Source: Candidatus Cloacimonadota bacterium
Lineage (GTDB): Bacteria > UBA4055
Assembly (NCBI GenBank): GCA_002742935.1
Contig: PDON01000060.1
Span: forward strand, 70,178 to 134,177
DNA: 64,000 nucleotides
Reading direction: 5' to 3'
The translations under genes and the position numbers were made by a program. Positions 10,117 to 63,081 of the stretch are shown in pieces. The notes under the pieces are model-generated. The model searched no databases. It worked only from the letters and a program-made list of their open reading frames with translations, and was not told the DNA's origin. The first letter of the stretch is position 1; each line of letters starts with the position of its first letter.

Positions 10117-10167
10117 AGTTTAATTAAAGTTAAATTATTAATTTTACAATTATTTAAGGAGAGAATT

Positions 10168-10752: not shown

Positions 10753-10757
10753 AAAAT

Positions 10758-11624: not shown

Positions 11625-11650
11625 TATCAAGAATATTTTCATATAATTTA

Positions 11651-11680
11651 AGAGGGGGTAATATTACCCCTTCTTAATTA
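11651..11680 (+). terminator. rho-independent terminator after the cyclophilin pair
   Basis: About 10-bp stem AGAGGGGGTA / TACCCCTTCT with ATAT loop, T-rich tail. Confidence 0.5.
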
Positions 11681-12165
11681 TAAAAAATATGATCTAACTC
11701 TCTATATTATACAGATGTTTGTTATAAAAATAACGATTAAAATCTATTTTTAGAAAAATGCCTCAAAAAAATAAAATTGTTTAAGAAAACAACAAACAAT
11801 CACACTAATCTCATATTACACATAATAGATTTCATTTGAACACAAAAACCCTTAAAAACATATCCTTAAATGATCAATAAACTAAATAAAAATAATCAAA
11901 ATTAACTATTGACAGATTTTGAATAGATTGATAGGTTCTATGCCAGTATTACTGAGTATCTTTTTTATATCAAAAAAAGATAGTTTTTATGACAAAAAAC
12001 AGGGTAATATTGATGGGGCTGTTTTATAGTGTTAAAAATTGAGATTGAGACTTAGTTTTAATACTAATCATTTTTATACTAGGATTAAAATCTCAATATA
12101 AGGATTATATTTACAGCGTTTAGGTTCATTTTAAAATTTATTAGAAAAGAGAATGGAGTAAAAGT

Positions 12166-48255: not shown

Positions 48256-49389
48256 CTAGCTATAGAACTCTACTATTTTTTGGGATATATACTCAATCTC
48301 ACTTTGTTTAAGTTCATAGTACATAGGTAAACGGATTAGTGTATTTGAGTACCTGTCACAATTTTTTAATGCTCTCCCATCATGCTTTGATTTAAAGTAT
48401 TCGCTACTATGTAAAGATTGATAGTGAAAAACAGCTAGAATATTATTGGATTTTAAAAATTTTAGCAAGCTATCTCTTTCGTTGATATTTTTACATACCA
48501 AATAGAACATATGTCCATTATTTGTTGCGTAATCGGGGATATCACCTAGCTTTGTTTTACCATTTATTTCAAGAGAGGATAACCCTTCATAATACCTATT
48601 CCAGTTTTCAATCCTCTTACTCTGAATATTCTTCATTGATTCCAATTGAGCGTATAGATAAGCCGCAATAATATCGGAAGGTAAAAATGATGATCCTATA
48701 TCAACCCAACCATATTTATCAACTTCGCCTCTAAAAAATTTTTGTCTATTTGTTCCCTTTTCCCAAATAACCTCAGCTCTTTCTATAAATTTTTCATCAT
48801 TTATAAATAGTGCTCCACCTTCGCCGGAAATAATATTTTTAGTTTCATGAAAAGAGAGGGTTCCCAAATGACCAATGGTTCCTAATGGTTTCCCTTTGTA
48901 ATAGGAATCAATAGCTTGGGCAGCATCCTCAACAACAAAAAGATTATACTTATCTGCCAACTCCATTATCTTATCCATATCACAAGAAACACCTGCATAA
49001 TGAACGGGAACAATAGCTTTTGTTTTATCTGTGATTAAACTTTCAATCTTATCAGCATCAATATTAGGATTGTTATCGCAACTGTCAGCAAATATAATTT
49101 TAGCACCTCTAAGAGCAAAGGCATTAGCAGTGGAAACAAAGGTGTATGATGGTATAATTACCTCATCACCCAATTTTATATCAAGAAGTATTGCAGCCAT
49201 CTCTAAAGCATCAGAACAACTGGTTGTCAAAAGGACTTTTTTTATACTATATCTCTCTTCAAAAAAGGAGTGACACTTTTTGGTAAAGTATCCATTTCCA
49301 GCTATATGGGATTGCTTATACACAGCTTCATACATATAATGAGCTTCTTTACCGGTTAAATGAGGTTTATTAAATGATATCTTATTCAT
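48256..49389 (-). CDS. DegT/DnrJ/EryC1/StrS-family PLP-dependent sugar 4-aminotransferase (WecE/ArnB-like)
   Basis: N-terminal FNKPHLTGKEAHYMYEAV...GYFTKKC resembles the WecE N-terminus; 377 aa. Confidence 0.75.
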   Translation of the reverse strand: MNKISFNKPHLTGKEAHYMYEAVYKQSHIAGNGYFTKKCHSFFEERYSIKKVLLTTSCSDALEMAAILLDIKLGDEVIIPSYTFVSTANAFALRGAKIIFADSCDNNPNIDADKIESLITDKTKAIVPVHYAGVSCDMDKIMELADKYNLFVVEDAAQAIDSYYKGKPLGTIGHLGTLSFHETKNIISGEGGALFINDEKFIERAEVIWEKGTNRQKFFRGEVDKYGWVDIGSSFLPSDIIAAYLYAQLESMKNIQSKRIENWNRYYEGLSSLEINGKTKLGDIPDYATNNGHMFYLVCKNINERDSLLKFLKSNNILAVFHYQSLHSSEYFKSKHDGRALKNCDRYSNTLIRLPMYYELKQSEIEYISQKIVEFYS

Positions 49390-49456: not shown

Positions 49457-51034
49457 TTACTCCTCTTTTAAAATCTCCTCTAAGCTAACCACCTCATGAT
49501 CCTTCACATTCCTATCCTTTTCATTAAAAGCTATACCCATACAGACAACTTTTTTCTTATCATTCAAGTATGGTTCATAATATTTTTTACTCTTTATCTG
49601 TTCAATAGCAGATTTTGCACTATTCATCTTAAATTCCATTACATAGATAAAATCTCCAACCTTTACAACAGCATCAATTACACCATTATTGGTCTTTTGC
49701 TCTACATCAATATTTATGCCCATAAATTTTAGAGCTAAATAGATAATTGTATGGTAATAACTTTCATACTTTCCGGTTCCGAGATTGTTTGGAATATCAG
49801 CAAAAATAGATCTAAGGGTTAATATAAAGGCTCTAATATCATTTTTTTCTAAAGAGGATACTAAATCCTGTATTTTTTGAGAATAATAGCCACTTTCAAT
49901 TCCTGCAAATTCAGCCCCTAAAAGCAGATAAAAAGATTGTTTTACCTCCATATTAGGATATCCTATTTTGTAAGATATAGAAAAATTATTTGGATCCATC
50001 ATCTTCTCTTTAATAGTGAGATAGCCTGTTTGAAAGAGAAGAACACTCATGTTTATATTTTCTAGATTATAGGAGTCTAAAGCTGATTCAGGAACATTTA
50101 TAAGATCATCATAATCTCTAACATTAATGCCCTTCTCTTTTATAAGCTTTATTAAAAAGGTCGCAGTTCCTGTTTTAAACCAAAAGTTTTTAAACTCTCT
50201 ATACCATAGAAGACTTAAAACAGAATACGGGTTATAGATAGAACTCTTAATATCCCAAGAGTAGCCATTATACCATAGTTTGACTACCTCTATTAGCCGT
50301 TTTCTATTAATACCATACTTCTCTTCAATAGTTTTTAGATAATCTCCATAATTATCTATAATCTCTTTTTCTGTATAGCCTGCTATCTCTGCATAATTTT
50401 CATCAATTGTAATATCTGTTAAATTATTGAGTTCACTAAAAAATGATACTCTACTAAACTTTGAGACCCCTGTTATAAAAAGTAGTTTTATATGATTATC
50501 TAAATCTTTAATTACAGAGTAAAATTGTTTCAATATCTCTCTATTTTTTTCAGCTGTTTCTAAATTGGTAATATAATCAATTATCGGCTTATCATACTCA
50601 TCTATTAAAATTGCAACAGGCTTTTCTTTACTTAGTTTTATTATTAGTTCTCTAAATTTTTCAGAAAATATTTCTGAGCTGTCAAAAATAACATTATTAT
50701 CTTTAGCAATACTATTAAGTTCTTTCTCTATAGCTTCTTTCAAATCTAAAGAGTTATAGGGTAAATTTGCAAAACTGATCTTTATAACCGGAAACTTTTC
50801 CTCAAAATTCCACTTATTATATATCCAAGTTCCTTCAAAAAGTTCTTTATTTCCATTAAAGAGTTCTTTCATTGTATTTACTAGGAGAGATTTCCCAAAT
50901 CTTCGTGGACGGGAAAGGAAGTAGTATTTTCCTGTTGAAATAAGTTTATTGATAGTTTTTGTTTTATCTACATAAACACAATTATCTCTTCTGAGTGTTG
51001 AGAGTTCTTGATATCCTAAGCCTAGTTTTTTCAT
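49457..51034 (-). CDS. AAA-ATPase-like plus PD-(D/E)XK domain protein (paralog 2)
   Basis: About 65% identity to the 51332 gene over the N-terminus; shared YVDKT / LSRPRRFGKSL motifs; C-terminal IDAVVK...IMEFK nuclease-like motif. Confidence 0.7.
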   Translation of the reverse strand: MKKLGLGYQELSTLRRDNCVYVDKTKTINKLISTGKYYFLSRPRRFGKSLLVNTMKELFNGNKELFEGTWIYNKWNFEEKFPVIKISFANLPYNSLDLKEAIEKELNSIAKDNNVIFDSSEIFSEKFRELIIKLSKEKPVAILIDEYDKPIIDYITNLETAEKNREILKQFYSVIKDLDNHIKLLFITGVSKFSRVSFFSELNNLTDITIDENYAEIAGYTEKEIIDNYGDYLKTIEEKYGINRKRLIEVVKLWYNGYSWDIKSSIYNPYSVLSLLWYREFKNFWFKTGTATFLIKLIKEKGINVRDYDDLINVPESALDSYNLENINMSVLLFQTGYLTIKEKMMDPNNFSISYKIGYPNMEVKQSFYLLLGAEFAGIESGYYSQKIQDLVSSLEKNDIRAFILTLRSIFADIPNNLGTGKYESYYHTIIYLALKFMGINIDVEQKTNNGVIDAVVKVGDFIYVMEFKMNSAKSAIEQIKSKKYYEPYLNDKKKVVCMGIAFNEKDRNVKDHEVVSLEEILKEE

Positions 51035-51331
51035 GATAAAATCCTATCAAAATTATTTCTATAATATTCTTTTTCTATATTTGGTCTTGATGTATTAAGG
51101 TATCTCATTATTACTCCCAAAAATAGTTCTATTTCTATTTAAGTACAGTATAAGTCATTTTTAGTAAAAATAAAATTAATATGATTAATTTGATAGTTTT
51201 GCTCTTAGGGAAGCAGATAAGATCTTTTAAAGATCTAAATTTCCCCAAATATTATTACTCAAATCATGTTTTAAACAACTAACCCTAAATAAAAACACTA
51301 CAAAAATTTCTAAATTTAGAATTGAACCTTT

Positions 51332-52903
51332 TTATAGTAATTCCATCTCTTCTACACTTGCTACTTCATAGCCTTTAACATTTCTATCATCTGAATCAAA
51401 AGCAACTCCAAGACAAATAATATCTCTTTCGTCATCCAAATATCGTTCATAATACTTTTTCTCTTTAATCTGTTTTAGAGCAGCCTTTGCATTACTCATC
51501 TTAAACTCCATTATATAAATATAATCTTTAGTTTTTACGACCGCATCAATTCGCCCATGATTGGTATTAACCTCCACATCAATCTGAACTCCTATAAACT
51601 TTAGAGCTAAATAAAGAACGGTATGGTAATAACTCTCTTTTTGATTGCTAGCAAGATTATTTGAAATATCTGCAAAAAGAACCCTAATACTTTTGATAAA
51701 ATCTTCAATTTTATTTTTTTTGAGAGCAATCATTAACCTATTAACCGTATCAGAATATTTCAAATTATGAAGTCCGGCAAATTCCGCTCCCAAGAAAAGG
51801 TAGAGAGAAGATCTTACTTCCATATTGGGATAACCCATTTGAAACGAAACAAACTCCTCATCCCTAATATATTCTTTAATGGTTAAATATCCGGTTTGAA
51901 ACAAAAGAACAGAGGTATCAATATTAGAAATTTCGTAAGAATCTAAAACGCTTCTAGAAATATTTATTTGATTATCATACTCTTTAACATCAATATCTTT
52001 TTCTTTAATTAGCTTGGTTAAAAATGTAGGAGTTCCGGATTTAAACCAAAAATTTTCAAATTCCAAAGAGTTAAAAAGATTTAAAACAGAATAAGGATTA
52101 TAAACAAAATTTTTAGCATCCCAAGAGTATCCATTGTACCAAAATTTTATTCTTTCTAATAATCTTTTTCTATCCCAATTATACTCTTCTTCGAGTTCAA
52201 TCAAATAATTTTCATAATTATCTATAATCTCCTCTTCTGTATATCCTGTAATATTAACATATTTTCTATTAATGGTAATATCTGTTAAATTATTAAGTTC
52301 TGAAAAAATTGAAACCCTACTAAATTTAGAAACTCCCGTGATAAACAAAAATCTAATATGAGCATCTAAATTTTTAAGGACAGAGTAGAAATTTTTCATA
52401 ATTTGTCTATTCTTTTCCGCTGTGTCTCGTGATTTTTCATCAATATAATCTATAATTGGTTTATCGTACTCATCTATCAAAATTGCAACAGGATTTTTTT
52501 TGCTAAGTTTTATTATTAGTTCTTGAAATTTTTCTTTTACAGTTATAGTTTCAAGCTTAACTTTGTGATTTTTTGCTATATCCTCTAGATTTTCTCGAAG
52601 AACAATATCTAAGCCCCTATTTGCATAATCTAAACTCGCCATACAAATCTTAATTATAGGAAATGTTTCAGCAAAATTATATTTATCCTCTATCCAAGTA
52701 TCTTTAAAAAGCTCTTTATTTCCTTGAAAAATTTCTTTAATAGTGTTTAGAAGTAAAGATTTTCCAAATCTTCTTGGGCGAGATAGGAAACAATAAGTTT
52801 CATTATTGATTAGTTCATAAATATACTCTGTTTTATCAACATAAACACAGTTTCTTTTTCTAAGCATTGATAACTCTTGAGTTCCAAGTCCAAGTTTTTT
52901 CAT
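51332..52903 (-). CDS. AAA-ATPase-like plus PD-(D/E)XK domain protein (paralog 3, tandem with paralog 2)
   Basis: As above. Confidence 0.7.
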   Translation of the reverse strand: MKKLGLGTQELSMLRKRNCVYVDKTEYIYELINNETYCFLSRPRRFGKSLLLNTIKEIFQGNKELFKDTWIEDKYNFAETFPIIKICMASLDYANRGLDIVLRENLEDIAKNHKVKLETITVKEKFQELIIKLSKKNPVAILIDEYDKPIIDYIDEKSRDTAEKNRQIMKNFYSVLKNLDAHIRFLFITGVSKFSRVSIFSELNNLTDITINRKYVNITGYTEEEIIDNYENYLIELEEEYNWDRKRLLERIKFWYNGYSWDAKNFVYNPYSVLNLFNSLEFENFWFKSGTPTFLTKLIKEKDIDVKEYDNQINISRSVLDSYEISNIDTSVLLFQTGYLTIKEYIRDEEFVSFQMGYPNMEVRSSLYLFLGAEFAGLHNLKYSDTVNRLMIALKKNKIEDFIKSIRVLFADISNNLASNQKESYYHTVLYLALKFIGVQIDVEVNTNHGRIDAVVKTKDYIYIMEFKMSNAKAALKQIKEKKYYERYLDDERDIICLGVAFDSDDRNVKGYEVASVEEMELL

Positions 52904-53088
52904 GATAATCTTCTCCTATTAGAATCATTTTATCTTATGTATAAAATAAAATAATTTTTTGTTAAAGGGAAAATAAAATTAGTTTGATAGTCTAAATTAG
53001 AGTATCAACTTTGATTCTTCTATAAGAGTTAGTAATAGTTTCATTGATTTTAGTCACCATCTTTAATAAGAGTGATATTTTTTAAAAC

Positions 53089-53439
53089 CTACATATTAAA
53101 TACAACAACTCCAATTACAATTATAAGTGTACTTAACAACTGATTTTTAGAAAAACTCTCTTTTAAAATAAAATAGGATAAAAAATTTACCACTACAAAG
53201 GTAAATGGTAAAAATATCACTCCATACTTTACATCTAAATATCTATAAACATATAAATTTAATAAAGTAACCACTAGCATAAGGAAATATCCTAGTATTG
53301 TAAACTTATTTAGATATATTGAAAGTTTTGAGTTTTGTTTGCTACTTCCTTTTTTTAGAAGTAGTTGGGCAAAACCTGTAAGCAAAACTCCAAGATAGCC
53401 TAAAATAATTAACATAAAATGAAAATTTGACCCAATCAT
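53089..53439 (-). CDS. small 4-TM SMR/EamA-like membrane protein, ArnE/ArnF-like flippase subunit
   Basis: 116 aa, 4 TM; C-terminal half resembles ArnE (GVIFLPFTFVVVNFLSYFILKESFS vs [27 protein letters not shown]); 4-nt overlap with the partner gene. Confidence 0.55.
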   Translation of the reverse strand: MIGSNFHFMLIILGYLGVLLTGFAQLLLKKGSSKQNSKLSIYLNKFTILGYFLMLVVTLLNLYVYRYLDVKYGVIFLPFTFVVVNFLSYFILKESFSKNQLLSTLIIVIGVVVFNM

Positions 53440-53807
53440 TTCAACCTTTCCTTTATATTCCCTTCTTCTCCCGAACTTAGAAGAAGTAGAACACCTAATA
53501 AAATAATAATAGTACCAACTATATTATTTGTTGATATCGTTTCTCCATAGAAAAAGTATCCTGAAAAAAGTACAACGGGATAGATTAAAGACATAAACAT
53601 ATAGGAGTAGGAAAGTTTAAAATATTTTAAAGCTAATTGCCAAAATATAGCTTGGAGAAAAAGTAAGAAAAGAACTGATAAATAGTAAACATTTGTTGAT
53701 ACTTCATAGAGAGTATATTCTTCCATTGATATAGAAGCCTTTTTTCCAACTATAATAGCTAAAGATTGGAATAGAAAAGAGAGGAATATAAAGAGATATT
53801 TAAACAT
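53436..53807 (-). CDS. small 4-TM SMR/EamA-like membrane protein, second ArnE/ArnF-like subunit
   Basis: 123 aa, 4 TM, paired with the previous gene as in arnE-arnF. Confidence 0.55.
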   Translation of the reverse strand: MFKYLFIFLSFLFQSLAIIVGKKASISMEEYTLYEVSTNVYYLSVLFLLFLQAIFWQLALKYFKLSYSYMFMSLIYPVVLFSGYFFYGETISTNNIVGTIIILLGVLLLLSSGEEGNIKERLK

Positions 53808-53812
53808 AATTT

Positions 53813-54508
53813 TTATTCTATAACTTTATAATACCAAAAAGATACAGAGTTGACCTTAAATCCATTTCTAATATAAAAGTTTTGAGCTTTAATGTTTGTT
53901 CCTTGGGTAGAAACGAATAATTTAGCAACATCATTCTCAATTAGTTTTTCCATTAGCATATTAATAAGAATTGAAGCAAATCCTTTATTACTAAATTTTG
54001 GATTAGAACCAACAAGTCCAATAGTGGCTATATCCTTTTCAATTTTAACAGTAATAAAAGAGCAAATATTTTTATCTTGACTTAAAACTAAACAGAAATC
54101 ATCAAATGTTCCTAGTACCGCTTTTTTTATCCAGGTACTATAAAGTTTTTCTGAATCATGTTTAGAAAAAGGCTTATGATTATATCTTGATTTTTTATAA
54201 ATTATCTTAGTGAAGTTTTGTAGAGTTTCAATATCACTAATATCAGCTTTTCTTATTCTTAGATTGGGATCTAATTTAATTTTTTGTTTTATACTTTTAG
54301 TTAAATTTTTATAAAAAGTAATATTTAATTCTACAAATTTAAAGTCAAGATATTCAAGCATTGATATTCTGTCTATATAGCTAATATCTACAGAAGATTG
54401 AATCAGATCAAACATATGTTCCTCTTCTACCTGGAATCTAGAAGAGGCATCAAAATCGCCAATTTTCATAGAAAAAAACTCAGAATCCCACACCAGTTTT
54501 TTAATCAT
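53813..54508 (-). CDS. wecD: GNAT-family sugar N-acetyltransferase, WecD-like (dTDP-4-amino-4,6-dideoxyhexose N-acetyltransferase)
   Basis: KLYSTWIKKAVLGTFDDFCLVL matches E. coli WecD [22 protein letters not shown] as recalled; C-terminal GNAT motifs; 231 aa vs 224 aa. Confidence 0.65.
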   Translation of the reverse strand: MIKKLVWDSEFFSMKIGDFDASSRFQVEEEHMFDLIQSSVDISYIDRISMLEYLDFKFVELNITFYKNLTKSIKQKIKLDPNLRIRKADISDIETLQNFTKIIYKKSRYNHKPFSKHDSEKLYSTWIKKAVLGTFDDFCLVLSQDKNICSFITVKIEKDIATIGLVGSNPKFSNKGFASILINMLMEKLIENDVAKLFVSTQGTNIKAQNFYIRNGFKVNSVSFWYYKVIE

Positions 54509-55436
54509 TTAATCTTTCCTTTACAATATATAAAGGTCTCTTTTTTACTTGCTCAAAAATTTTACCAACATATATTCCCACTACACCAAGTGTCATTATT
54601 ATAAGTCCTGAAAGTAGCCATACAGAAGCAATTAAACTAGACCAACCCTCTACAGGTGTTTTATAGATATAATATCTTAGTACAATATAAAACACATATA
54701 TGAATGATAAAAAGGATATACTTATACCCATACTAACAATAATTTTAAGAGGCTTATCTGTAAAACTCAAAAAAGAATCAAGGGCTAATTTTAATAGTTT
54801 TCTAAATGTATAGCTTGTTTTTCCATGTTGACGAGAAGAATGTTTAACATCAATAGATACTCTTTTGAATCCAACGTACTGTACCATTACAGGGAAATAT
54901 CTTATGGAATCATTTAAAGAGCATATACTATTTATCACTTTCCTACTATATATGCCAAAGTTTGCAATTTTCTCATCTTGCTTAGTTTCAGTTAAAAAAC
55001 TAAGAGTTTTATAAAATATGAAAGAAGATACTTTTTTCAAGTAGCTATCATGTCTAATAGTTCGTTGACCTAATACAGAATCATAACCTTCCAAAGCCTT
55101 ATTATACATCTTCTCTATCTCTTCCGGCTGATCTTGAAGATCTCCATCCATAACCACAACCCAGTTTCCCGAAGAGTAGTCTAAGCCTGCTGTAATAGCA
55201 TAATGTTGACCAAAATTTCTTGAAAGGTTTATGCCAATAACTTTTTTATCTCTACTTACTAAATTATAAATTACACTCCAATCATTTTCCGGACTTGCAT
55301 CGTTTACTAAAATTATTTCGAAAGAGGGTACTATTTTTTCTAAGGTATCAACAAGCCTTCTATAAAGTTCTTCCAAGCTTTGCTCACATTTATAGCAAGG
55401 AACTACTACAGATATTTCAGGATTATTATTTTTCAT
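54501..55436 (-). CDS. GT2 polyprenyl-phosphate glycosyltransferase (ArnC/GtrB/DPM1-like) with two C-terminal TM helices
   Basis: SVVVPCYKCEQSL...ILVNDASPEN...NFGQHYAITAGL...VMDGDLQDQPEEI closely parallels ArnC motifs (DxD = DGD). Confidence 0.85.
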   Translation of the reverse strand: MKNNNPEISVVVPCYKCEQSLEELYRRLVDTLEKIVPSFEIILVNDASPENDWSVIYNLVSRDKKVIGINLSRNFGQHYAITAGLDYSSGNWVVVMDGDLQDQPEEIEKMYNKALEGYDSVLGQRTIRHDSYLKKVSSFIFYKTLSFLTETKQDEKIANFGIYSRKVINSICSLNDSIRYFPVMVQYVGFKRVSIDVKHSSRQHGKTSYTFRKLLKLALDSFLSFTDKPLKIIVSMGISISFLSFIYVFYIVLRYYIYKTPVEGWSSLIASVWLLSGLIIMTLGVVGIYVGKIFEQVKKRPLYIVKERLND

Positions 55437-55626
55437 TGTTTTTTATTGAGAATTAAAGGTAATATTTCAATCTAGCTTATTTAAAATTATAACTACACCC
55501 ACAAATAGATTATAATTAATAATTTTTTGTTTCACAAGATCAAATATTTAATAGCTTTACCAATTAGATTTAATCTATACAATCTTAACTAGAATCTACT
55601 GGAAATTCTTCGTCTTTAAGAGATTT

Positions 55627-56505
55627 TTAATTATCTATAGATGAAGTTTTATACTTTTTTGATGCAACCACAGTAAAACCACTAGCACAATTTTTTGCCA
55701 ACTTGTTATGTTTTAAAATAATATCAAGAAACTTTACAGGAAATGTAATAACCATGAGAACTATATAAATTACAGAATAGAGAGGTCTATAACCAAATGA
55801 TAGTACTACAGCAATATAATCTTGTAGTATCCAAAGTAACCCGGAAGTAGGCCCTCCTGCAGTGTAAAGATTTTCAATATTATATTCCTTAAATAAGATT
55901 TTCATACCCTCATATGTTCTTCTACTATAATCATAAGGACTTGCATGAAAGCCTTGCATAAAAGGGAAAAAACAGATAATCTTGCCTCCCGGTTTTAAGA
56001 TTCTATAAAACTCTTTAACAACTTTTTCTGGGTTAGTCACATGCTCCAATACTGCTATATTTATTATATTATCCACACTATTATCTTTTATGGGAATATT
56101 ATCAATATCACAACTCATATCTACATTATCATAAGGGAAAATATCTACATTTGAAACATTATCAGAAACATTACTGTTCCCACTTCCAAAATTTATAGAC
56201 ACTTTATTTATTCCATTAACATTTTCATCTATAAATTTTTTCAAATAATTATCGGGACAAACAGGGCTTATAACATTAATTAAAAAAGAGTATAATTTAT
56301 GATACTTCTTAAAAAAATATTTTAACTTATCTAAGCTATCACTTATCTCAGATTCTTCAAAATATTTAAATAGTATCTTATTATTAGATATTTCTATCTT
56401 TGCCTTACACTCATTACAAGATATACTAGTCGGGTTTTCCGTAAAGGATCCCCCACACTTAGTACACTTCAATATTTCAATTTCAATATTTCTACCCATT
56501 ATCAA
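55627..56505 (-). CDS. class I SAM-dependent methyltransferase with N-terminal Cys4 zinc-ribbon
   Basis: CTKCGG...CNEC ribbon; methyltransferase motifs (INFGSG; VLEHV...PGGKIICFFP). Confidence 0.6.
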   Translation of the reverse strand: MIMGRNIEIEILKCTKCGGSFTENPTSISCNECKAKIEISNNKILFKYFEESEISDSLDKLKYFFKKYHKLYSFLINVISPVCPDNYLKKFIDENVNGINKVSINFGSGNSNVSDNVSNVDIFPYDNVDMSCDIDNIPIKDNSVDNIINIAVLEHVTNPEKVVKEFYRILKPGGKIICFFPFMQGFHASPYDYSRRTYEGMKILFKEYNIENLYTAGGPTSGLLWILQDYIAVVLSFGYRPLYSVIYIVLMVITFPVKFLDIILKHNKLAKNCASGFTVVASKKYKTSSIDN

Positions 56506-58588
56506 TTACCTTTTCTAATTTGAAAACTTGAAACATACTATTTTCAAAAACTAAATTATAACTCTTATCTTTCATCCAAAATCTCAAATAATCCTCTTTT
56601 CTTAAATATCCTAACCAAACTTTATCTTTTTTCTTATAACTTTCATCAGCTAAAGGCCAATTAGGATTTCTGGTAAATTTAGATGAAAAAACAATGTATA
56701 CAGGTTTTTTCTTTTGGCTATTTTTATCAAACTCCTTTCTAAAAGATGTAAAAGTCAAGCAATCATGCCAAGGATTATTTGTTATACAATTAATTTCAGT
56801 TAAATAGTAAAACATAGGGATCCAACCTATAAAAACACCCGGTGTATTATTTCGTTCATAATTTTCTTTCTCAAAAAACCTTAGGAAATCATCTACAACT
56901 TCTACTCTTTGAGGAAAAGTGTGTATTCCATATAGTCCTTTTGCACTAAACATATTAATTAATAGCGACCTATCTGACAAATCTCTATGGGAATTATTAT
57001 AGTTTTTAGGATTCAAAGATGAGAAAACTATAAAAGAGACTACTATTATTGTAAAATAGCTAAAATTAAGAGTAATATTTTTATTTACTGTATATTTTCT
57101 TTCATCTACAAGTATTGCTAAAGGTATTGAAAGTAGTAGTAAGGCTGACCCCGCTCTACAAATAATATTGAAAGAGAGTAGAGATCCCGGGAAAGAGAAA
57201 AGGGCAAGCATAGTTGTAACTATTATTAACTTTTTAACACCATCCTTAATACTATGCAGAATTAAAACATAAAACAGTGAAACCAAAATTAATATAGAAA
57301 CTAGAAACTCTAAATTTATTTCAAGATTATAATGTGATAAAAAGTATATAAAAAATGTAGATATAAATGAAAAAACAGACCTAGTAACAATACCACTTAT
57401 CTTTGAAGTAATAATCCAAAGGATTACTGTAAAAAAGAATATATACGGTATTGATCTATGTATTAGTTTCCATAAATTAGTAAAATAGATTTTAAATAGC
57501 TTAGATACAACATAATTATCATTTTCGGATTTATAAATAGGATCACACCTTAAGCTATCCTGTTTTAATGAGTCGGTTAAATAGAAAAAGGAATCAGAAC
57601 TTATATTTCCAACAGATGAAGACTCTTTATCTTTTTTGAAATTAATAATTTGGTCATAAACTTTATGGTACTCATCACTTTTAATCTCTGGCTTACTTAA
57701 GTTTTCTTTTACATATGTAAAGTAAGGATTTATGCTATTTAATTGAAACATTATTAAAAAAGCTAAACCAAAACTTAAAAGATAACCCAAATAGATGTTT
57801 CCTAAGGTTTTAACAGGCTTTTTATTATTCTTAGAATCAAGAGCAAAAATAACAAGTGGCAAAATTAATATAGGTATATAATTAAATTTTAAAAATATAC
57901 AAAATCCCCAAAAAAAGCCAGCTACAATTTCAGCTTTTATTTTAGAAGGGTACTTAAGAAAGAAATAGAAGCCAATAATGGAGAAAAGATATGGTAAATT
58001 ATCATAATTAACTGAAAGATAGTAGTTGTACTGTATGAAAAAGAATATCATAAAGTAAAATATAAAAAAATGGGTTAATTTCTTGAAGTAGATTTCATAT
58101 ATTTTATAAGAAAACATTATTATCATTGAAACAACAATCACATAACCAACTCTTCCCCATAAAACAGAAGGAGTATTTATAATTTTTAACCATAATCCAT
58201 ATATAAAACTTGTACCAATTAGAAAATCACTATTTTCATAAGTTGTATTAGTCAGTAATCCCCATGCCTTTGATAGATGGAAACCTGTATCCGTAACATC
58301 AAATGTTTTAAAAATTCTTTGAAATGTATATACAATTGTTGTCACATAAAGTATAATTTTTCTATTTTTGTCTATAAACTCTTTGGGAGTAACTTTTGAA
58401 AAAGCAAATAAAAAAAATGGAATGGAGCCAAATATGTACAACAAGAACTCAATGTAAAAGAAAGAGTAATCACTATAGCCAAAATTGTTTAAAATTTTAT
58501 CTTGGGATAGGGTTAAGAATTGTATTGGAGATTTAATTATCAAAACTAAAAAAACTATTATAAGCAATACGAGTTTGATGTATTTCAT
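56492..58588 (-). CDS. large polytopic membrane protein with C-terminal soluble domain; candidate GT-C-fold glycosyltransferase (ArnT/PMT/TfpW-like) or, alternatively, Wzy_C-type oligosaccharyltransferase
   Basis: 698 aa; about 12-14 TM segments in the first 520 aa, acidic motif (FDVTDTG) in the first extracytoplasmic loop; about 180-aa C-terminal domain; immediately downstream of the pilin gene. Confidence 0.45.
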   Translation of the reverse strand: MKYIKLVLLIIVFLVLIIKSPIQFLTLSQDKILNNFGYSDYSFFYIEFLLYIFGSIPFFLFAFSKVTPKEFIDKNRKIILYVTTIVYTFQRIFKTFDVTDTGFHLSKAWGLLTNTTYENSDFLIGTSFIYGLWLKIINTPSVLWGRVGYVIVVSMIIMFSYKIYEIYFKKLTHFFIFYFMIFFFIQYNYYLSVNYDNLPYLFSIIGFYFFLKYPSKIKAEIVAGFFWGFCIFLKFNYIPILILPLVIFALDSKNNKKPVKTLGNIYLGYLLSFGLAFLIMFQLNSINPYFTYVKENLSKPEIKSDEYHKVYDQIINFKKDKESSSVGNISSDSFFYLTDSLKQDSLRCDPIYKSENDNYVVSKLFKIYFTNLWKLIHRSIPYIFFFTVILWIITSKISGIVTRSVFSFISTFFIYFLSHYNLEINLEFLVSILILVSLFYVLILHSIKDGVKKLIIVTTMLALFSFPGSLLSFNIICRAGSALLLLSIPLAILVDERKYTVNKNITLNFSYFTIIVVSFIVFSSLNPKNYNNSHRDLSDRSLLINMFSAKGLYGIHTFPQRVEVVDDFLRFFEKENYERNNTPGVFIGWIPMFYYLTEINCITNNPWHDCLTFTSFRKEFDKNSQKKKPVYIVFSSKFTRNPNWPLADESYKKKDKVWLGYLRKEDYLRFWMKDKSYNLVFENSMFQVFKLEKVIDNG

Positions 58589-58602
58589 ATATTTGACCTT
58601 TT

Positions 58603-58632
58603 TAAATAAAAAAAGCCAATCCGAGGATTGGC
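58603..58632 (-). terminator. rho-independent terminator directly after the pilin gene (minus strand)
   Basis: On the minus strand: GCCAATCC-TC-GGATTGGC hairpin followed by T7. Confidence 0.65.
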
Positions 58633-58654
58633 CTTATGTTAAAAACAGCTTTTG

Positions 58655-59002
58655 TTAGAATGCAGTACTCTGTGCAGATACGCCTGTACCTGATCTAGTA
58701 GGTGTAACAGTAATAACACCAGTTTGATTATCACCATTCAAGCTAACAGATATAGAGCTTATTTGAGCATTAGCCACACCTGTTGTCCAAGCTTTTAAAC
58801 CTTGAACACTAGCTTCTGTAATATCTCCCTTTGAAGCAACTAAAGCAGCTGCTTCAGCAGCTACAGTTGCAGCCATATTTTGAGCAACTTGCATTGCTGC
58901 ATCATCAATATATTTTTGATATGCAGGAACCGCTACAGCAGCCAGGATAGCTACGATCACAGCCACAACCATTACCTCAATTAAAGTAAAACCTTTTTTC
59001 AT
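58655..59002 (-). CDS. type IVa pilin (prepilin with class III signal peptide)
   Basis: MKKGFTLIEVMVV N-terminus (Gly-1, Phe+1, Glu+5); 115 aa; Ala-rich N-terminal helix; Ser/Thr-rich C-terminal half, no Cys; GGAGGAAG RBS; locally GC-enriched. Confidence 0.8.
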   Translation of the reverse strand: MKKGFTLIEVMVVAVIVAILAAVAVPAYQKYIDDAAMQVAQNMAATVAAEAAALVASKGDITEASVQGLKAWTTGVANAQISSISVSLNGDNQTGVITVTPTRSGTGVSAQSTAF

Positions 59003-59569
59003 TTCTCTCTTCCTCCATTTTAAATTGTTGTTCGCCCAAAACGGGCACAGTTTACTTAAACAATCGCATAGGACTATGCAATCAATAATAATTATGACAA
59101 ACTAGGAGTAAACTGCGTACTTAACTTTTTAAGTATACATTATATTACCCCCGACATAATTAATATCATATTTTTTTATACCCTTGTCAAGCTCTTTATT
59201 TTTACTTTTGGGAATACATTTTTCAGCTAAAATGGAAGTTGTGAAACTACTATAAATTATAAACACAATTCCTCTTTGTTATTTTTTATTTATTGTTTTT
59301 ATTTTTAATAAAACTATTTAGATAGGATACAGTACTGTATTATACTTTAATCTAAAACACTTTTATGTTATAAGCAACTTATTATAGAATTTTTTTTAAA
59401 TAAATTATACAAACATTCCTATTTTCATAACTAAAATTCCACTGTAGGTGATTTTCCTTCAAAATTCCTATTCCAGAACTAACCAAAGTTTTGCAATTTA
59501 ACCTGAGTTCGATATAAAACAAATACCTATTTTATGTAATAATTAAAATTAGAAATATATCCTGTGTGT

Positions 59570-59640
59570 GTACCCTGAGGTTCTCGAAGGGTATAACTAT
59601 ATGATTATAGTTTTCGTTCCCTTCGAGAGCCTCAGGGTAC
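59570..59640. repeat. 22-bp GC-rich inverted repeat (GTACCCTGAGGTTCTCGAAGGG / CCCTTCGAGAGCCTCAGGGTAC) with a nested 7-bp AT palindrome in the 27-nt loop
   Basis: Arms pair at 22 of 22 positions on the + strand (one G-U wobble); sits in an otherwise AT-rich intergenic region. Confidence 0.7.
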
Positions 59641-59722: not shown

Positions 59723-61168
59723 CTAAATATCCGCAACACTAAAACCCATTTTAAGCAAACTATTTGACTTAACTATCTCCAAAAGTTTTTCATTATCTAT
59801 ATAGTTAAAATGTTTATTGGCATCTATAATGGAAGAGTTGTTTCTCTTCATATAAAATGAAAGTTCACTACTCTTTTTATACCCTATGTAAGGAACCAAA
59901 GCAGTAGCTATACCGGTTTTGTATAAAATATCCTCATTTCTACTCTCAATTGTTAAGCCCATAAAAATATTACTCTTTATTGTTGAAACAGAAGATATCA
60001 TTAGATCAAGAGAGTTGAGTAAGGCATCCCCTATGATTGGAATATAGGGATTTAGTTCCAAGCACCCCTTAGCGGCAAGTTCTGAAATCATTGAATCGTT
60101 GGCAAAAACTTTAGCAGAACAACTTACAACATATTCAGGTATTACAGGGTTAACCTTACCCGGCATAATTGAGCTTCCGGTTTGTTTTTCAGGTATGGAA
60201 AGAGAGCTCTTTACAAGATCACTGCTTAAAAGTCTCAAATCAGAAACCATCTTTTCCAAATTCACCGAAAGTGATTTAAGTATAGCATGAACCTCGACAA
60301 AGGTATCTAAGTTGGATGTAGTATCACTCATATTTTCAGATCTTGAAAGAGGAAGATTCAGCTCGCTTTTAAGATTGTTGATAACCTCTAAAATAACAAA
60401 TCTTGGAATGGCTAATCCCGTACCTATGGCTCCACCTCCCAAATTTAGAACCTTAATTCTTTCAAAACATTTTGAAACCCTCCACCAATCTCTTGAAAGG
60501 GCGTTGTTATAGGAAGAAAAGAGCTTTCCGTAAGATGTGGGAACAGCCTCCTGCATTTGGGTATGACCCATTCTCATTATATCCCTATACCTATTTTCAA
60601 GCTTTTCACCCTCAAATCTAAGATCGTTTATTCCACTCTCCAAAATTGAAAGTTTTCTCATTATAGCAATCTTTAATGCAGAGGGGATAACATCATTTGT
60701 CGATTGGAAAATATTTGCGTCATTTACGGGGTCAATCTTTTCATAATCACCATAATTAAACCCCAGAATCTCTAAAGATCTATTGGCAATAATCTCATTA
60801 ACATTCATATTTATACTTGTACCGGCTCCACCGGAGATAGCAGGAACTATGAAATCATCAAAATATTTACCTAAGCTTATCTCTTCACTAGCCTGAATCA
60901 TAGAGTTTAAACAACTATTGGACGGTATGGATATTTTAAGGTCTAAGTTGGGATATTTTTTATCAATGGCACTCTTAAACTTTAGAACGGTTCTGTAGAA
61001 ACTTCTCTTCACATCACCAATTGCCCTGTACCAAGATATTGAAAATAGATGATTATTGGGGAAATTACTCTTTGCTCTAAGGGAGTGGATACCATATTTT
61101 CTATCCCTTTCTACCTCTAGCTCTCCTAAAAAATCTTTCTCAACCCTAAACTTCTCCATTATCATCAC
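59723..61168 (-). CDS. aspartate ammonia-lyase / class II fumarase family lyase
   Basis: GSSIMPGKVNPVIPE signature (GSxxMxxKxN) and N-terminal EKDFLGELEV...YGIHSLRAKSNF. Confidence 0.7.
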   Translation of the reverse strand: MMIMEKFRVEKDFLGELEVERDRKYGIHSLRAKSNFPNNHLFSISWYRAIGDVKRSFYRTVLKFKSAIDKKYPNLDLKISIPSNSCLNSMIQASEEISLGKYFDDFIVPAISGGAGTSINMNVNEIIANRSLEILGFNYGDYEKIDPVNDANIFQSTNDVIPSALKIAIMRKLSILESGINDLRFEGEKLENRYRDIMRMGHTQMQEAVPTSYGKLFSSYNNALSRDWWRVSKCFERIKVLNLGGGAIGTGLAIPRFVILEVINNLKSELNLPLSRSENMSDTTSNLDTFVEVHAILKSLSVNLEKMVSDLRLLSSDLVKSSLSIPEKQTGSSIMPGKVNPVIPEYVVSCSAKVFANDSMISELAAKGCLELNPYIPIIGDALLNSLDLMISSVSTIKSNIFMGLTIESRNEDILYKTGIATALVPYIGYKKSSELSFYMKRNNSSIIDANKHFNYIDNEKLLEIVKSNSLLKMGFSVADI

Positions 61169-62549
61169 CTAAAATTAGTTCAACTTTTTCACTCTCTAAG
61201 CTCTCAACAGATCTTAGCTTCCTGTTTATCTGATTAACCCTTGTCGATCTCAAACTATCCAATGTTTTTTCAGCACTATTGAGCTGTCTGTAAGCTTTAT
61301 CCAAAATATCCGTAAACTTGAGAAACTCTGATTTAACTGCTGAAAGCAACTCCCATACCTCGCTCGATCTCTTCTGTACTGCAACAGTTTTAAAACCCAT
61401 TCTTAGACTATTTAAGAAAGCAGTTAGGGTTGTGGGCCCTGTAATAGATATTTTAAACCTTTTTTGAAGGTCCTCAACAACTCCCGGTATTGATAAAACC
61501 TCTCCGTATAAACTCTCTACAGGAAGAAACATTATAGCAAAATCTGTAGAGTGTGGAGGGTGGATATATTTAGAGCTTATATCTTTTGCCGAATTGTAGA
61601 TAGAACTGATAAGCTCCTTATACCTCGACTCAATCTCCTCCTTATCTCCAACCTCTCTGGCTTCTAAAAGGAGATTATACTTATCTAAAGGGAATTTTGA
61701 ATCTATTGGTAATAGAACACTCTTTTCATCATGACCGGGCATTACAATAGCAAACTCAACACTATTTCCGGAGAGGGGATCAATCTTACAATTGGATATA
61801 TATTGATCGGGAGAAAAGATCTGTTCTAAGATAGCTCCCAATTGCAACTCCCCCAAAATACCTCTTGTTTTAACACCGGATAAAACCTTTTTAAGATCTC
61901 CTACCCCTCTGGCAAGGGTTTGCATCTCCCCCAGCCCCTTATGAACCTGTTCCAATCTACTACTAACTATATTAAAAGATTCTCCAAGTCTCTTCTCAAG
62001 AGTAGCATGGAGTTTATCATCTACTATGGATCTAATTTCATTAAGTTTTTCACTATTTCCTTTAGCAAGAGTTGAAAGCTGTTTTTCAACTGTTTCCAAA
62101 ATATCTTTTTGATACTTTTCCGTTGACTCGTTCAGTAGCTTATATCTCTCCACTAAATCAAAAAAATTTACCTTTATAGCTTCCACAATTTTATTGTTTT
62201 GATTCTCACTTTTAAGAAAAAAGGATTCCGAAAAAAGATTAATATATTTGGAGATTTCACTACTTAATTTACCAATGGTTTCGGAAAAAGATCCCATTTG
62301 ATTATCTATTTTTAAGTTGATACCTTTGTCTATTTCAGAGATTTTATTGTTAAGATAGAGCTTGGTATCATAAATATTTTCATTTAATTTTAAACTCTCC
62401 TCTAATAATCTCTTCATCCTATTCTCAATATCCTTTTCTAACTCTTTACTCTCTTTCCCTCTTCTAATAACCACAAAAACAAGAACAATGAGAACCAAAA
62501 AGATTAAAAGATTGAATGTTAATAACACTATTTCCATACTACTTTGCAA
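61146..62549 (-). CDS. rmuC: DNA recombination protein RmuC-like (N-terminal TM, long coiled coil, C-terminal RmuC-like domain)
   Basis: 467 aa with the N-TM plus coiled-coil plus conserved C-terminal arrangement; family-level call from architecture. Confidence 0.5.
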   Translation of the reverse strand: MQSSMEIVLLTFNLLIFLVLIVLVFVVIRRGKESKELEKDIENRMKRLLEESLKLNENIYDTKLYLNNKISEIDKGINLKIDNQMGSFSETIGKLSSEISKYINLFSESFFLKSENQNNKIVEAIKVNFFDLVERYKLLNESTEKYQKDILETVEKQLSTLAKGNSEKLNEIRSIVDDKLHATLEKRLGESFNIVSSRLEQVHKGLGEMQTLARGVGDLKKVLSGVKTRGILGELQLGAILEQIFSPDQYISNCKIDPLSGNSVEFAIVMPGHDEKSVLLPIDSKFPLDKYNLLLEAREVGDKEEIESRYKELISSIYNSAKDISSKYIHPPHSTDFAIMFLPVESLYGEVLSIPGVVEDLQKRFKISITGPTTLTAFLNSLRMGFKTVAVQKRSSEVWELLSAVKSEFLKFTDILDKAYRQLNSAEKTLDSLRSTRVNQINRKLRSVESLESEKVELILGDDNGEV

Positions 62550-63081
62550 TATCCAAAATCTCCTCTATACTATCCATAAAATAATCATATCCGTTATAAT
62601 CTTCTCTACTTATCTTACCGTAACCTGTTCCCACTAAAACAGTGGTTAGCTTAGAGCTTTTACCCGCCTCAATATCTGAAACCTTATCACCAACAAAAAA
62701 TGATCCCTCTCTCTCTATTCCATACTTTTTTATCATATCCTCAATAAGTTTATTTTTAGGTTTTCTACAATCACAAACCAAAGAGTACTCTTTAATTTTA
62801 CCTTTGGGATGGTGAGGACAGTATAAGATCTCTTCAAACTCAAAGCCATGATTTTTTACTTCAGTTTTTATAAATGAATTAAGTTTTAAAAGATCCTTTT
62901 CTTTAAAGTAACCTCTAGCAATGCCACTCTGATTGGAGATTATAAAAAGTTTATAACCTCTCACAAACAACTCCTCTAAAGTTGATAAAACCCCCTTTTC
63001 AAATTGAAAATCCTCTATCTTATAGAGATAATCTTTCTCCTTATTTATAGTGCCGTCTCTATCCAAAAATATAGCTTTCAT
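62539..63081 (-). CDS. gmhB: HAD-IIIA phosphatase, D-glycero-D-manno-heptose-1,7-bisphosphate 7-phosphatase-like
   Basis: FLDRDGTIN motif I, ISNQSG motif II, CxHHP...CxCRKP zinc site, GDKVSD motif IV. Confidence 0.75.
   Translation of the reverse strand: MKAIFLDRDGTINKEKDYLYKIEDFQFEKGVLSTLEELFVRGYKLFIISNQSGIARGYFKEKDLLKLNSFIKTEVKNHGFEFEEILYCPHHPKGKIKEYSLVCDCRKPKNKLIEDMIKKYGIEREGSFFVGDKVSDIEAGKSSKLTTVLVGTGYGKISREDYNGYDYFMDSIEEILDIAK

Follow-up and report, generated by a model that had tools for sequence, protein, structure and literature searches.

Genes and features of the locus

The DNA analyzed here, referred to as the window, is a stretch of 64,000 nucleotides from a Candidatus Cloacimonadota contig (PDON01000060.1), and its minus strand carries a pilin gene followed by a cassette of genes whose products resemble enzymes that make, load, flip and transfer a sugar. 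A check of the open reading frames (ORFs) of the window placed all of those in the cassette on the minus strand, at exactly the positions given to them in a first-pass annotation of the sequence. The gene order described there (pilin, terminator, a membrane protein of 698 amino acids (aa), methyltransferase, family 2 glycosyltransferase (GT2), GNAT acetyltransferase, two EamA proteins, two AAA-ATPases and an aminotransferase) was recovered in full, each ORF showing the family affinity that had been claimed for it. Proteins in NCBI with the locus tags CR982_05810 and CR982_05815, encoded on a 141,637-bp contig of a metagenome-assembled genome, match the 698-aa protein and the pilin at 100% identity. 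The features of the locus are as follows, where GT-C denotes the glycosyltransferase fold C.

58655..59002, minus strand: prepilin, 115 aa (Pfam N_methyl, 33.5 bits, cut-off 21.2; TIGR02532, 35 bits, cut-off 16.3)
58612..58635, minus strand: intrinsic terminator or attenuator, downstream of the pilin gene and ahead of the glycosylation genes (10-bp stem AAGGCCAATC/GATTGGCTTT, then U7)
56492..58588, minus strand: membrane glycosyltransferase with a predicted GT-C fold, 698 aa, unnamed family (predicted structure and conserved residues)
55627..56505, minus strand: class I S-adenosylmethionine (SAM) methyltransferase (Methyltransf_11, E = 5.6e-13; N-terminal CxxC...CxxC zinc ribbon; C-terminal hydrophobic segment 231-249)
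54501..55436, minus strand: GtrB/ArnC-type polyprenyl-phosphate glycosyltransferase, GT2 (Glycos_transf_2, 1.3e-28)
53813..54508, minus strand: WecD-like two-domain GNAT (NF008212, 161.9 bits over the full length, cut-off 219; TIGR02382, 96.8 bits, cut-off 195)
53436..53807, minus strand: EamA/SMR-like half-transporter 1, 123 aa (EamA, 2.9e-5; ArnF, 26 bits, cut-off 99; ArnE, E = 0.0026)
53089..53439, minus strand: EamA/SMR-like half-transporter 2, 116 aa (EamA, 2e-7, 31.8 bits, cut-off 28.2; no NCBIfam match)
48256..49389, minus strand: WecE-type dTDP-4-keto-6-deoxyglucose 4-aminotransferase (NF008687, 569 bits, cut-off 375; TIGR02379, 526 bits, cut-off 435)
49457..52903, minus strand: tandem pair of AAA-ATPase_like and PDDEXK_9 genes (51332-52903 and 49457-51034; Pfam), outside the glycosylation logic
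59162..59190, minus strand: sigma-70-like promoter match (TTGACA-17-GATATT), the best upstream of the pilin gene (10 of 12 positions; consensus match only)

The genes that follow the pilin gene are tightly packed: the start of the methyltransferase gene overlaps the stop of the 698-aa ORF by 14 nt, the GNAT gene overlaps the GT2 gene by 8 nt, and the EamA pair overlaps by 4 nt. The window has a GC content of about 31% overall, and the cassette (53000-58000) stands at 25-30% compared to 37-38% in the neighbouring housekeeping genes (46000-48000 and 60000-62000), which is consistent with horizontal acquisition of the cassette as an island.

The pilin gene and its flanking signals

The prepilin bears a class III signal, in which the short basic leader MKKG is followed by FTLIEVMVVAVIVAILAAVAVPAY, giving a mature N-terminus FTLIEV with Gly at -1, Phe at +1, Glu at +5 and a hydrophobic alpha1-N. 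The mature protein has 111 residues and no Cys, and its last 55 residues include 17 Ser/Thr, in agreement with the Ser/Thr-rich, Cys-free C-terminal half described previously. The first-pass annotation had also called the protein a type IVa pilin; the pilin assignment stands, with a class III signal and with N_methyl and TIGR02532 above their cut-offs, but the type IVa assignment could not be established because the mature pilin is only 111 residues long, has no disulfide and is not accompanied by pilus machinery in the window. The disulfide-bonded C-terminal D-region of type IVa pilins is absent from the window pilin, and the homologous pilins are likewise free of Cys.

The spacer between the pilin gene and the gene for the 698-aa protein measures 66 nt and holds the terminator, the hairpin of which has a predicted free energy of -14.3 kcal/mol (z = -3.38); none of 200 shuffled sequences was as stable. 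The 10-bp stem and the T-run that follows it thus justify the earlier description of a strong terminator at this position. The sigma-70-like match upstream of the pilin gene is weak evidence for a promoter, because this AT-rich region holds no significant excess of promoter-like sites (58 versus 45 +/- 7 expected). A sigma54 promoter was sought as well, since related Desulfobacter loci carry a sigma54 activator, but inspection by eye of the sequence upstream of the window pilin gene revealed no TGGCAC-N5-TTGC-like site. A perfect 22-nt inverted repeat (GTACCCTGAGGnTCTCGAAGGG; 59570-59640) with arms 27 nt apart lies just downstream of a lyase gene, within the AT-rich stretch of 720 bp that precedes the pilin gene. 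It occurs as a single copy in the window, where none would be expected by chance, and might act as a bidirectional terminator or bind a protein.

The 698-aa protein has a predicted GT-C fold

Neither Pfam nor NCBIfam yielded a match to the 698-aa protein itself, even at E <= 10, and a family-profile search of Protein Data Bank sequences returned nothing significant (best E = 0.16, to an unrelated designed membrane-protein binder). Its homologues were slightly more informative: PMT_2, the only Pfam family that they reached, was matched by two of five close homologues (best 9.6e-9). An exhaustive profile search collected 775 representatives (50% clustering) at E <= 1e-3, and the family is annotated "hypothetical protein" in the NCBI record for the 698-aa protein.

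An AlphaFold (AF2) model built from a 40-sequence alignment reached a predicted local distance difference test score (pLDDT) of 88.4 and a predicted template modelling score (pTM) of 0.91; it superseded an earlier AF2 model from a 5-sequence alignment (pLDDT 64.5), in which Foldseek already pointed towards GT-C at a template modelling (TM) score of ~0.35. Structural comparison of the newer model demonstrated that the membrane module resembles solved GT-C enzymes. ArnT is among the best matches, as are the mannosyltransferases of the ALG type and the arabinosyltransferases Aft/Emb, with yeast Pmt4 and Pmt1/2 among the top, and most of these structural neighbours use polyprenyl-monophosphate sugars. 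The "GT-C-like" label of the first-pass annotation is therefore supported by the predicted fold, and a reading as a transporter was rejected, as matches to the MFS/POT class reached only a Foldseek probability <= 0.25 and a TM score <= 0.12. Profile searches for GT-C and Wzy_C families had been proposed along with that label, and their outcome was mixed: PMT_2 appeared in the two homologues mentioned above, the window protein itself matched none of the GT-C families in Pfam and NCBIfam, and Wzy_C was found neither in the protein nor in its homologues. Taken together, the structure prediction indicates that the 698-aa protein is a GT-C-fold enzyme that falls into no named GT-C family.

Conserved residues are consistent with this fold. 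In the 40 aligned sequences D100, G102, W133, G468 and P645 are invariant, and D97, T99, R146, R535 and D536 are nearly so. In the AF2 model, D97 and D100 come right after a helix (68-92) and before two short loop helices (100-112 and 124-137). The catalytic acid of GT-C enzymes characteristically sits where the first long extracytoplasmic loop begins, and the D97-x-x-D100 motif is predicted to face the periplasm from the order of the helices and the positive-inside rule (the preceding loop, 62-77, is rich in Lys/Arg). The C-terminal domain (residues 527-698, approximately 170 residues) is modelled as mixed alpha/beta, with strands at 583-587, 631-635, 677-682 and 686-691; conserved within it are H534-R535-D536, R561 and W644-P645. 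The NCBI record starts the protein 49 codons further downstream (649 aa); however, the alignments of all homologues begin at residue 2, with K2 and P21 conserved, and the 698-aa start is therefore preferred. Judging from this alignment, the deposited 649-aa protein probably lacks the first transmembrane helix.

Genes proposed for the synthesis, loading, flipping and tailoring of a sugar

The aminotransferase, assigned earlier to the DegT/WecE/ArnB family, passes the curated cut-offs for WecE and matches E. coli WecE (4piw) at 1.3e-123. The predicted GNAT matches the WecD model over its full length, although below the cut-off (162 versus 219 bits), and aligns with E. coli WecD (2fs5) at 6.8e-10, which upholds the previous WecD-like assignment; we propose from this similarity that it is a nucleoside diphosphate (NDP)-4-amino-4,6-dideoxyhexose N-acetyltransferase. 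On the basis of the NCBIfam cut-offs, the sugar is most likely 4-acetamido-4,6-dideoxy-D-galactose (Fuc4NAc) specifically. RmlA and RmlB, which commonly are encoded away from such cassettes, were not found by family scans of the cassette genes and the larger ORFs of the window (the scope of all family scans reported below); the cassette of a homologous locus, L002, carries an NTP_transferase gene and a 4,6-dehydratase-like gene.

The GT2 aligns over residues 3-307 with residues 23-328 of GtrB (5ekp; 1.2e-62) and matches ArnC structures at 4.4e-46, an agreement that includes the two C-terminal transmembrane segments (232-250 and 268-286) and confirms the ArnC/GtrB-like character ascribed to it. 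In NCBIfam its best match is PgfS (229 bits, equivalog cut-off 500), and ArnC scores 183 bits (cut-off 529). Orthologues that are 50-57% identical adjoin the GT-C gene in six other loci (L001, L007, L008, L009, L010 and L011). By analogy, and because a GtrB/ArnC-type synthase lies beside the GT-C gene here and in these six loci, the 698-aa enzyme would be expected to use a polyprenyl-phosphate-linked donor.

The two small membrane proteins had been described as ArnE/ArnF-like proteins with four transmembrane segments each. The description held in part: the first shows weak ArnF/ArnE similarity, but only three hydrophobic segments were detected in it, and the second has four segments, but resembles EamA only. 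We propose, by analogy to ArnE/ArnF, that the pair are subunits of a flippase for a lipid-linked sugar. The methyltransferase is missing from the homologous loci compared, with the exception of a weak match in L009, and is accordingly a variable accessory gene; it is probably a tailoring enzyme that methylates the glycan.

The two AAA-ATPase_like/PDDEXK_9 genes that separate the half-transporters from the aminotransferase gene were also examined as members of the pathway and were ruled out. They are 62% identical to each other and 40% identical to a third copy at 31549-33081, 18 kb away, and no counterpart was present in any of the homologous cassettes compared, as would be expected from the earlier claim that they are inserted. 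A search for flanking repeats, which would point to a mobile element carrying the AAA genes or the whole island, turned up only the gene duplication itself. The separated WecE nevertheless belongs to the module, given that orthologues 54% identical to it are encoded inside the cassettes of L007 and L008.

The cassette could instead be a decaying remnant, in which the AAA-ATPase insertion has uncoupled WecE and the pathway, without rmlA and rmlB, makes nothing. Such decay would account for the 3.6-kb stretch of unrelated genes that separates WecE from the putative flippase, for the absence of rmlA/rmlB from the window scans and for an island GC below that of the flanks. However, none of the nine ORFs is broken or truncated when compared with its homologues, RmlA and RmlB are commonly supplied from elsewhere in the genome, and WecE has kept its identity to the in-cassette orthologues. 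We regard decay as very improbable.

Linkage of the GT-C family to pilin genes

The neighbourhoods of family members were compared at 13 distinct loci, referred to here by L numbers. Four loci came from a genome scan and one from a metagenome scan, and most contexts came from look-ups of exact proteins; the 40-sequence alignment was too diverse for locus scanning. The sequences of L001, L011 and L016 are cut too near the gene to judge the presence of a pilin. A pilin gene lies directly upstream of the GT-C family member, on the same strand, in eight of the 13 loci: the window, L002/L003, L005, L006, L007, L008, L012 and L017/L018. L006 is from Desulfobacter vibrioformis DSM 8776 (pilin at 9147-9524, GT-C at 9959-12088), L007 from an uncultured Desulfobacter and L008 from Desulfobacterium, and L017/L018 come from a distant clade. 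Identity of the GT-C proteins to the window protein is 39% in L002/L003, 45% in L005, 42% in L006 and 40% in L012, and ranges over approximately 24-45% among the pilin-first loci. In two further loci (L013 and L014/L015) a divergently oriented pilin gene lies within two genes. The window pilin is homologous over its full length to the pilins that precede the GT-C homologues in L002, L005, L006, L007 and L008. A Ser near the C-terminus is invariant among the six cassette-linked pilins compared (Ser112 of the window pilin): its distance from the end is 16 residues in L002 and 3-6 residues in the other five. Ser112 is a candidate for the modified residue.

Whether the relatives are linked to pilins or to lipopolysaccharide (LPS) and lipid A genes was a check proposed with the first-pass annotation, and the pilin-linked cassettes are flanked by no LPS or lipid A genes. 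The association bears on the most direct alternative, namely that the same machinery acts on an acceptor other than pilin (lipid A or LPS core, O-antigen, capsule or another envelope glycan, in the manner of ArnT or GtrV) and that the pilin is a neighbour through island structure or co-regulation. ArnT, ALG and Aft/Emb enzymes are indeed among the best structural matches of the 698-aa protein, the GT2 and the putative flippase resemble ArnC and ArnE/F, and a GmhB-like HAD phosphatase is encoded 3.5 kb away. Furthermore, no pilin was seen near the close homologues L004, L009 and L010, nor near the distant L019, which lies in a Wzz/GT4 polysaccharide cluster; the family is thus not exclusively pilin-linked. 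However, adjacency to a pilin gene in eight loci, with two more within two genes, out of 13 loci and across at least two phyla, is far above chance for a gene class that makes up less than 1% of genes. In Desulfobacter the genes are part of a pilus cluster, with the major pilin on one side of them and the minor pilins on the other, and this linkage inside pilus clusters is the strongest argument against a different acceptor. In addition, Arn-specific models score far under their cut-offs, and neither ArnA and ArnD nor any LPS or lipid A gene was found by the family scans of the 64-kb window. An acceptor other than pilin is accordingly judged quite unlikely.

The pilus clusters also bear on the identity of the filament. 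In L006, L007 and L008 the pilin-GT-C pair follows genes for a PilQ-subfamily secretin, an AAA_22 ATPase, a PilB/GspE ATPase and a PilC/GspF platform protein; a sigma54 activator is encoded in the clusters of L007 and L008, and three minor-pilin genes lie downstream of the cassette in L007. The "pilin" could in principle be an orphan, or a pseudopilin of type II secretion or of another type IV filament that is not a pilus, with glycosylation serving a secretion machine. The NCBIfam scores of the pilins are spread over PpdD, GspG, GspH and ComGC without reaching the cut-off of any of these models. PilB and GspE models give almost the same score for the linked ATPase, and so do PilC and GspF models for the platform protein. 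The AAA_22 protein is similar to ExeA/MshM, and no machinery is encoded beside the pilin of the window. Nonetheless, the linked secretin passes the PilQ model (333 bits, cut-off 284) and fails that of GspD (231 bits, cut-off 351), the ATPase of the Desulfobacter/Desulfobacterium clusters carries an MshE-type cyclic di-GMP motif, and the position of a sigma54 activator ahead of the pilin recalls pilR-pilA. Moreover, the strong terminator after the window pilin gene suggests a highly expressed major subunit. Genomes of Cloacimonadota are reported to encode type IV pili (bioRxiv 10.1101/2021.10.08.463351). A pseudopilin or orphan is considered improbable. At 6137-7845 of L006 (D. vibrioformis), the PilB/GspE-type ATPase is split into two overlapping frames at ~7222; the two parts are 82% and 89% identical to the corresponding halves of the intact L007 protein, and the split is either a frameshift or an error of the draft sequence.

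The remaining genes of the cassettes form a core with variable additions. Small EamA genes occur in L001, L007, L008 and L012, with homologues of the first window EamA in L001, L007 and L008 and of the second in L001. DegT genes are found in L002 and L014/15, and GNAT genes occupy the same position in L012 and L014/15. The tailoring genes vary from locus to locus: a methyltransferase and an acetyltransferase in the window; ATP-grasp, radical SAM and aldehyde dehydrogenase genes in L007 (13066-18452); a LuxE acyl-protein synthetase and a LuxC reductase in L006 (12107-14402); and ATP-grasp in L001 and L010. Such differing genes around one core suggest that the 4-amino sugar may carry different N-acyl groups in different cassettes.

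Several loci depart from this arrangement. L009 (7894-11992) and L011 (3-3180) encode two GT-C family paralogues in tandem, followed by a GT2, with no pilin in view, and in L014/15 and L017/18 the family member is paired with a second GT-C enzyme of the PMT_2 type (555-564 aa); judging from these gene sets, several transferases may share one lipid-linked donor. A search in the opposite direction, starting from the small pilin, placed two sampled homologues (P0160, from Delongbacteria, and P0167) beside modules of PMT_2 GT-C, GT2 and LPG_synthase_TM proteins. Small-pilin homologues in L020 (556-8497) and L022 (7941-13918) lie beside large membrane proteins (575 and 631 aa) that have no Pfam match and are not recognised by the hidden Markov model of the family; these loci may represent further, different pilin-glycosylation modules.

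Comparison with known glycosylation systems

In the pilA-tfpW system of Pseudomonas aeruginosa group IV (Pa5196/PA7), the GT-C enzyme TfpW is encoded after pilA and O-glycosylates Ser/Thr of the pilin with a polyprenyl-monophosphate sugar of cytoplasmic origin, for which a small membrane protein, either GtrA-like or, as a back-up, ArnE/F, acts as the flippase (bioRxiv 10.1101/2020.04.19.049825). The GT-C gene here, and in seven other loci, likewise lies directly downstream of a pilin gene. The first-pass annotation had drawn a parallel to pilA-tfpW and pilA-tfpO; the placement after the pilin holds, but kinship of the enzymes does not, as TPR, YX6PFX7P and Wzy_C are all lacking. TfpW has a periplasmic C-terminal TPR domain, whereas the C-terminal domain of the 698-aa protein is alpha/beta and has no TPR match in Pfam; in place of the loop-1 DDX motif of TfpW it has DVTD, and a regular-expression search found neither the loop-4 motif YX6PFX7P nor YX6PX5P. 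The sugars also differ. TfpW transfers D-arabinofuranose (D-Araf), which is derived from phosphoribosyl pyrophosphate (PRPP), formed on the lipid by DprE1/DprE2-type enzymes and polymerised, whereas the donor here would be an NDP-derived 4-acetamido-4,6-dideoxyhexose loaded by a GtrB/ArnC-type enzyme. No gene for D-Araf synthesis (PRPP-polyprenyl-phosphate transferase, DprE1 or DprE2) was found by the family scans or among the scanned genes of the homologous cassettes. TfpW hosts are Gammaproteobacteria, and the present family is found in Cloacimonadota and Desulfobacterota. The described features thus set the 698-aa enzyme apart from TfpW, and it was rejected as a relative. The enzyme apparently works like TfpW from outside the TfpW family and, judging from sequence and gene context, would represent a second GT-C lineage dedicated to pilins.

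Pilin is also the acceptor of the TfpO/PilO and PglL enzymes, and tfpO lies directly after pilA and its product modifies a C-terminal Ser, comparable to the invariant Ser near the C-terminus of the cassette-linked pilins. These enzymes carry a Wzy_C domain and use undecaprenyl-diphosphate oligosaccharides; the fold predicted here is GT-C and no Wzy_C match was obtained from the protein or its homologues, and the TfpO/PglL type was therefore excluded.

The combination of a GT2 with C-terminal transmembrane helices, a presumed small multi-spanning flippase and a GT-C enzyme is that of the three-component systems GtrA/GtrB/GtrV, CsbB/GtcA/YfhO and ArnC/ArnEF/ArnT (PMC11127046). The three-component logic put forward earlier is borne out by the joint encoding of the GT2 synthase and the GT-C enzyme with a pair of EamA half-transporters, although the resemblance of the latter to known flippases is weak. 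The known systems act on O-antigen, teichoic acids and lipid A and draw on UDP-glucose (UDP-Glc), UDP-N-acetylglucosamine (UDP-GlcNAc) or UDP-4-deoxy-4-formamido-L-arabinose (UDP-Ara4FN). In contrast, the acceptor here would be pilin, the GT-C enzyme belongs to no named family, and the donor would come from the dTDP-Fuc4NAc branch (WecE/WecD), with no deformylase or deacetylase step. The Arn pathway of lipid A modification was rejected on the basis of its models (ArnB, 196 bits versus 631; ArnC, 183 versus 529; no ArnT match) and of the gene context.

The sugar-making genes resemble the Fuc4NAc branch of enterobacterial common antigen (RmlA/RmlB/WecE/WecD), as WecE exceeds its curated cut-offs and the GNAT, like WecD, is built of two domains. 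In common antigen synthesis the sugar enters a trisaccharide assembled on undecaprenyl diphosphate in the cytoplasm, whereas here it would go to a GtrB/ArnC-type lipid-phosphate synthase; WecF, WzxE, WzyE and WecA were not found by the family scans.

The streptococcal Pgf system (PgfS-PgfM1-PgfE-PgfM2) and the actinobacterial and eukaryotic PMT enzymes share with the present proposal the O-glycosylation of protein Ser/Thr by a GT-C enzyme from a lipid-monophosphate sugar, and streptococcal GtrB/GT-C systems glycosylate several Ser/Thr-rich proteins (PMC11092751). By extension, the 698-aa enzyme might be a general periplasmic protein O-glycosyltransferase (PMT- or Pgf-like) with many Ser/Thr-rich secreted targets, of which pilin is just the most abundant. 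The place of Pmt4 and Pmt1/2 among the top structural matches, PMT_2 as the sole Pfam family of the homologues and PgfS as the best NCBIfam match of the GT2 would all fit a general enzyme. The present case differs from the known systems in that the PgfS score is far below its cut-off of 500, the window GT-C has no sequence-level PMT match, and the hosts are diderms with a presumed pilin substrate and another sugar. Against a general enzyme, the tight and repeated coupling to one small pilin family, together with the order pilin-terminator-GT-C, fits a dedicated enzyme, as in pilA-tfpW and pilA-tfpO. We consider a general glycosyltransferase unlikely, although the enzyme may have substrates besides pilin.

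A proposed route of pilin O-glycosylation

The reading favoured here, with moderate confidence, is that the locus is a pilin O-glycosylation island that uses a three-component lipid-monophosphate route to transfer an N-acetyl-4-amino-4,6-dideoxyhexose from undecaprenyl phosphate. In the cytoplasm, WecE would aminate dTDP-4-keto-6-deoxyglucose supplied by RmlA and RmlB encoded elsewhere, and the WecD-like GNAT would N-acetylate the product to dTDP-4-acetamido-4,6-dideoxyhexose, most likely dTDP-Fuc4NAc. The GtrB/ArnC-type GT2 would then move the single sugar onto undecaprenyl phosphate, and the pair of EamA proteins, each with a presumed four transmembrane segments, would flip the lipid-linked sugar to the periplasmic face in the fashion of ArnE/ArnF. 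There, the 698-aa GT-C enzyme, acting through the acidic D97-x-x-D100 motif, would attach the sugar to Ser/Thr of the pilin, either ahead of pilus assembly or in its course. The membrane-anchored methyltransferase would probably methylate the sugar, and the terminator after the pilin gene would allow a large excess of pilin over the enzymes.

The gene content, the family affinities and the conserved linkage of pilin, GT-C, GT2, putative flippase and aminotransferase genes are observed, as are the folds to which these proteins are assigned. From these observations we infer which molecule accepts the sugar and at which residues, which sugar it is, that the GT2 takes it from a dTDP donor, and where the methyl group goes. 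However, it should be noted that several points weigh against the proposed route. The pilin is unusually small and has no disulfide, and its best NCBIfam scores are divided among the PpdD, GspG and GspH models; the WecD, ArnE/F and PgfS/ArnC models all score below their curated cut-offs; and neither pilus machinery and a prepilin peptidase nor rmlA/rmlB were found by the family scans of the window. The family members that have no pilin nearby count in the same direction. Furthermore, WecE may be transcribed separately, as two unrelated genes interrupt the cassette, and the GtrB/ArnC-type enzymes known to us use UDP or GDP donors, not dTDP donors.

A broader reading is offered tentatively, as a possibility that goes beyond the route above. 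The 698-aa protein might found an unnamed, phylogenetically broad GT-C family dedicated to the O-glycosylation of pilins in Cloacimonadota, Desulfobacterota and related anaerobes, whose members take single N-acylated 4-amino-4,6-dideoxyhexoses from undecaprenyl phosphate, with the first GtrB/ArnC-type synthase to act on a dTDP-sugar. Hypervariable tailoring cassettes (acetyl, methyl, ATP-grasp amino-acyl, radical-SAM and LuxC/LuxE acyl) might then diversify the pilus surface, probably under phage or grazing pressure.

Pilin glycosylation governs pilus assembly, adhesion, immune recognition and phage resistance. To our knowledge, only two types of pilin-glycosylating enzymes are well known, the Wzy_C oligosaccharyltransferases (TfpO/PglL) and a single GT-C enzyme, TfpW, which is limited to a few Proteobacteria. 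If the proposed route is correct, pilins are the target of a second GT-C lineage, which is unrelated to TfpW and reached them by convergence, an amino sugar of dTDP origin enters a GtrB/ArnC and ArnE/F-type lipid-monophosphate route and widens the donor range of these synthases, and modular, swappable tailoring genes surround a constant core. Given that TfpW and the three-component systems already exist, the proposal would be no conceptual surprise. The first-pass annotation had held that this combination was not described, and in the open-access literature no description was found of a GtrB/ArnC and GT-C system for pilins or of Fuc4NAc on pilins. D. vibrioformis DSM 8776 is in culture and E. 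coli makes dTDP-Fuc4NAc; the prediction is therefore directly testable, and the enzyme could yield a tool for site-specific protein glycoengineering.

Other features of the window

The other larger ORFs of the window have housekeeping or unrelated functions or no family in the family scans. They include 2-oxoacid dehydrogenase genes, Suf genes, AcrB-type efflux pumps, RF-1, an ABC-F protein, an ADP-forming acetyl-CoA synthetase, RidA, a fumarase/aspartase-class lyase and RmuC. The GmhB-like HAD phosphatase gene (62539-63081; HAD_2/PNK3P matches) overlaps the RmuC gene, upstream of the pilin; it is the sole other possibly sugar-related gene nearby, and its connection to the cassette is doubtful. 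Two secreted proteins (4961-6592 and 15135-16832) carry C-terminal sorting domains of type IX secretion (CHU_C and Por_Secre_tail), from which it appears that the Cloacimonadota host probably has a type IX secretion system.

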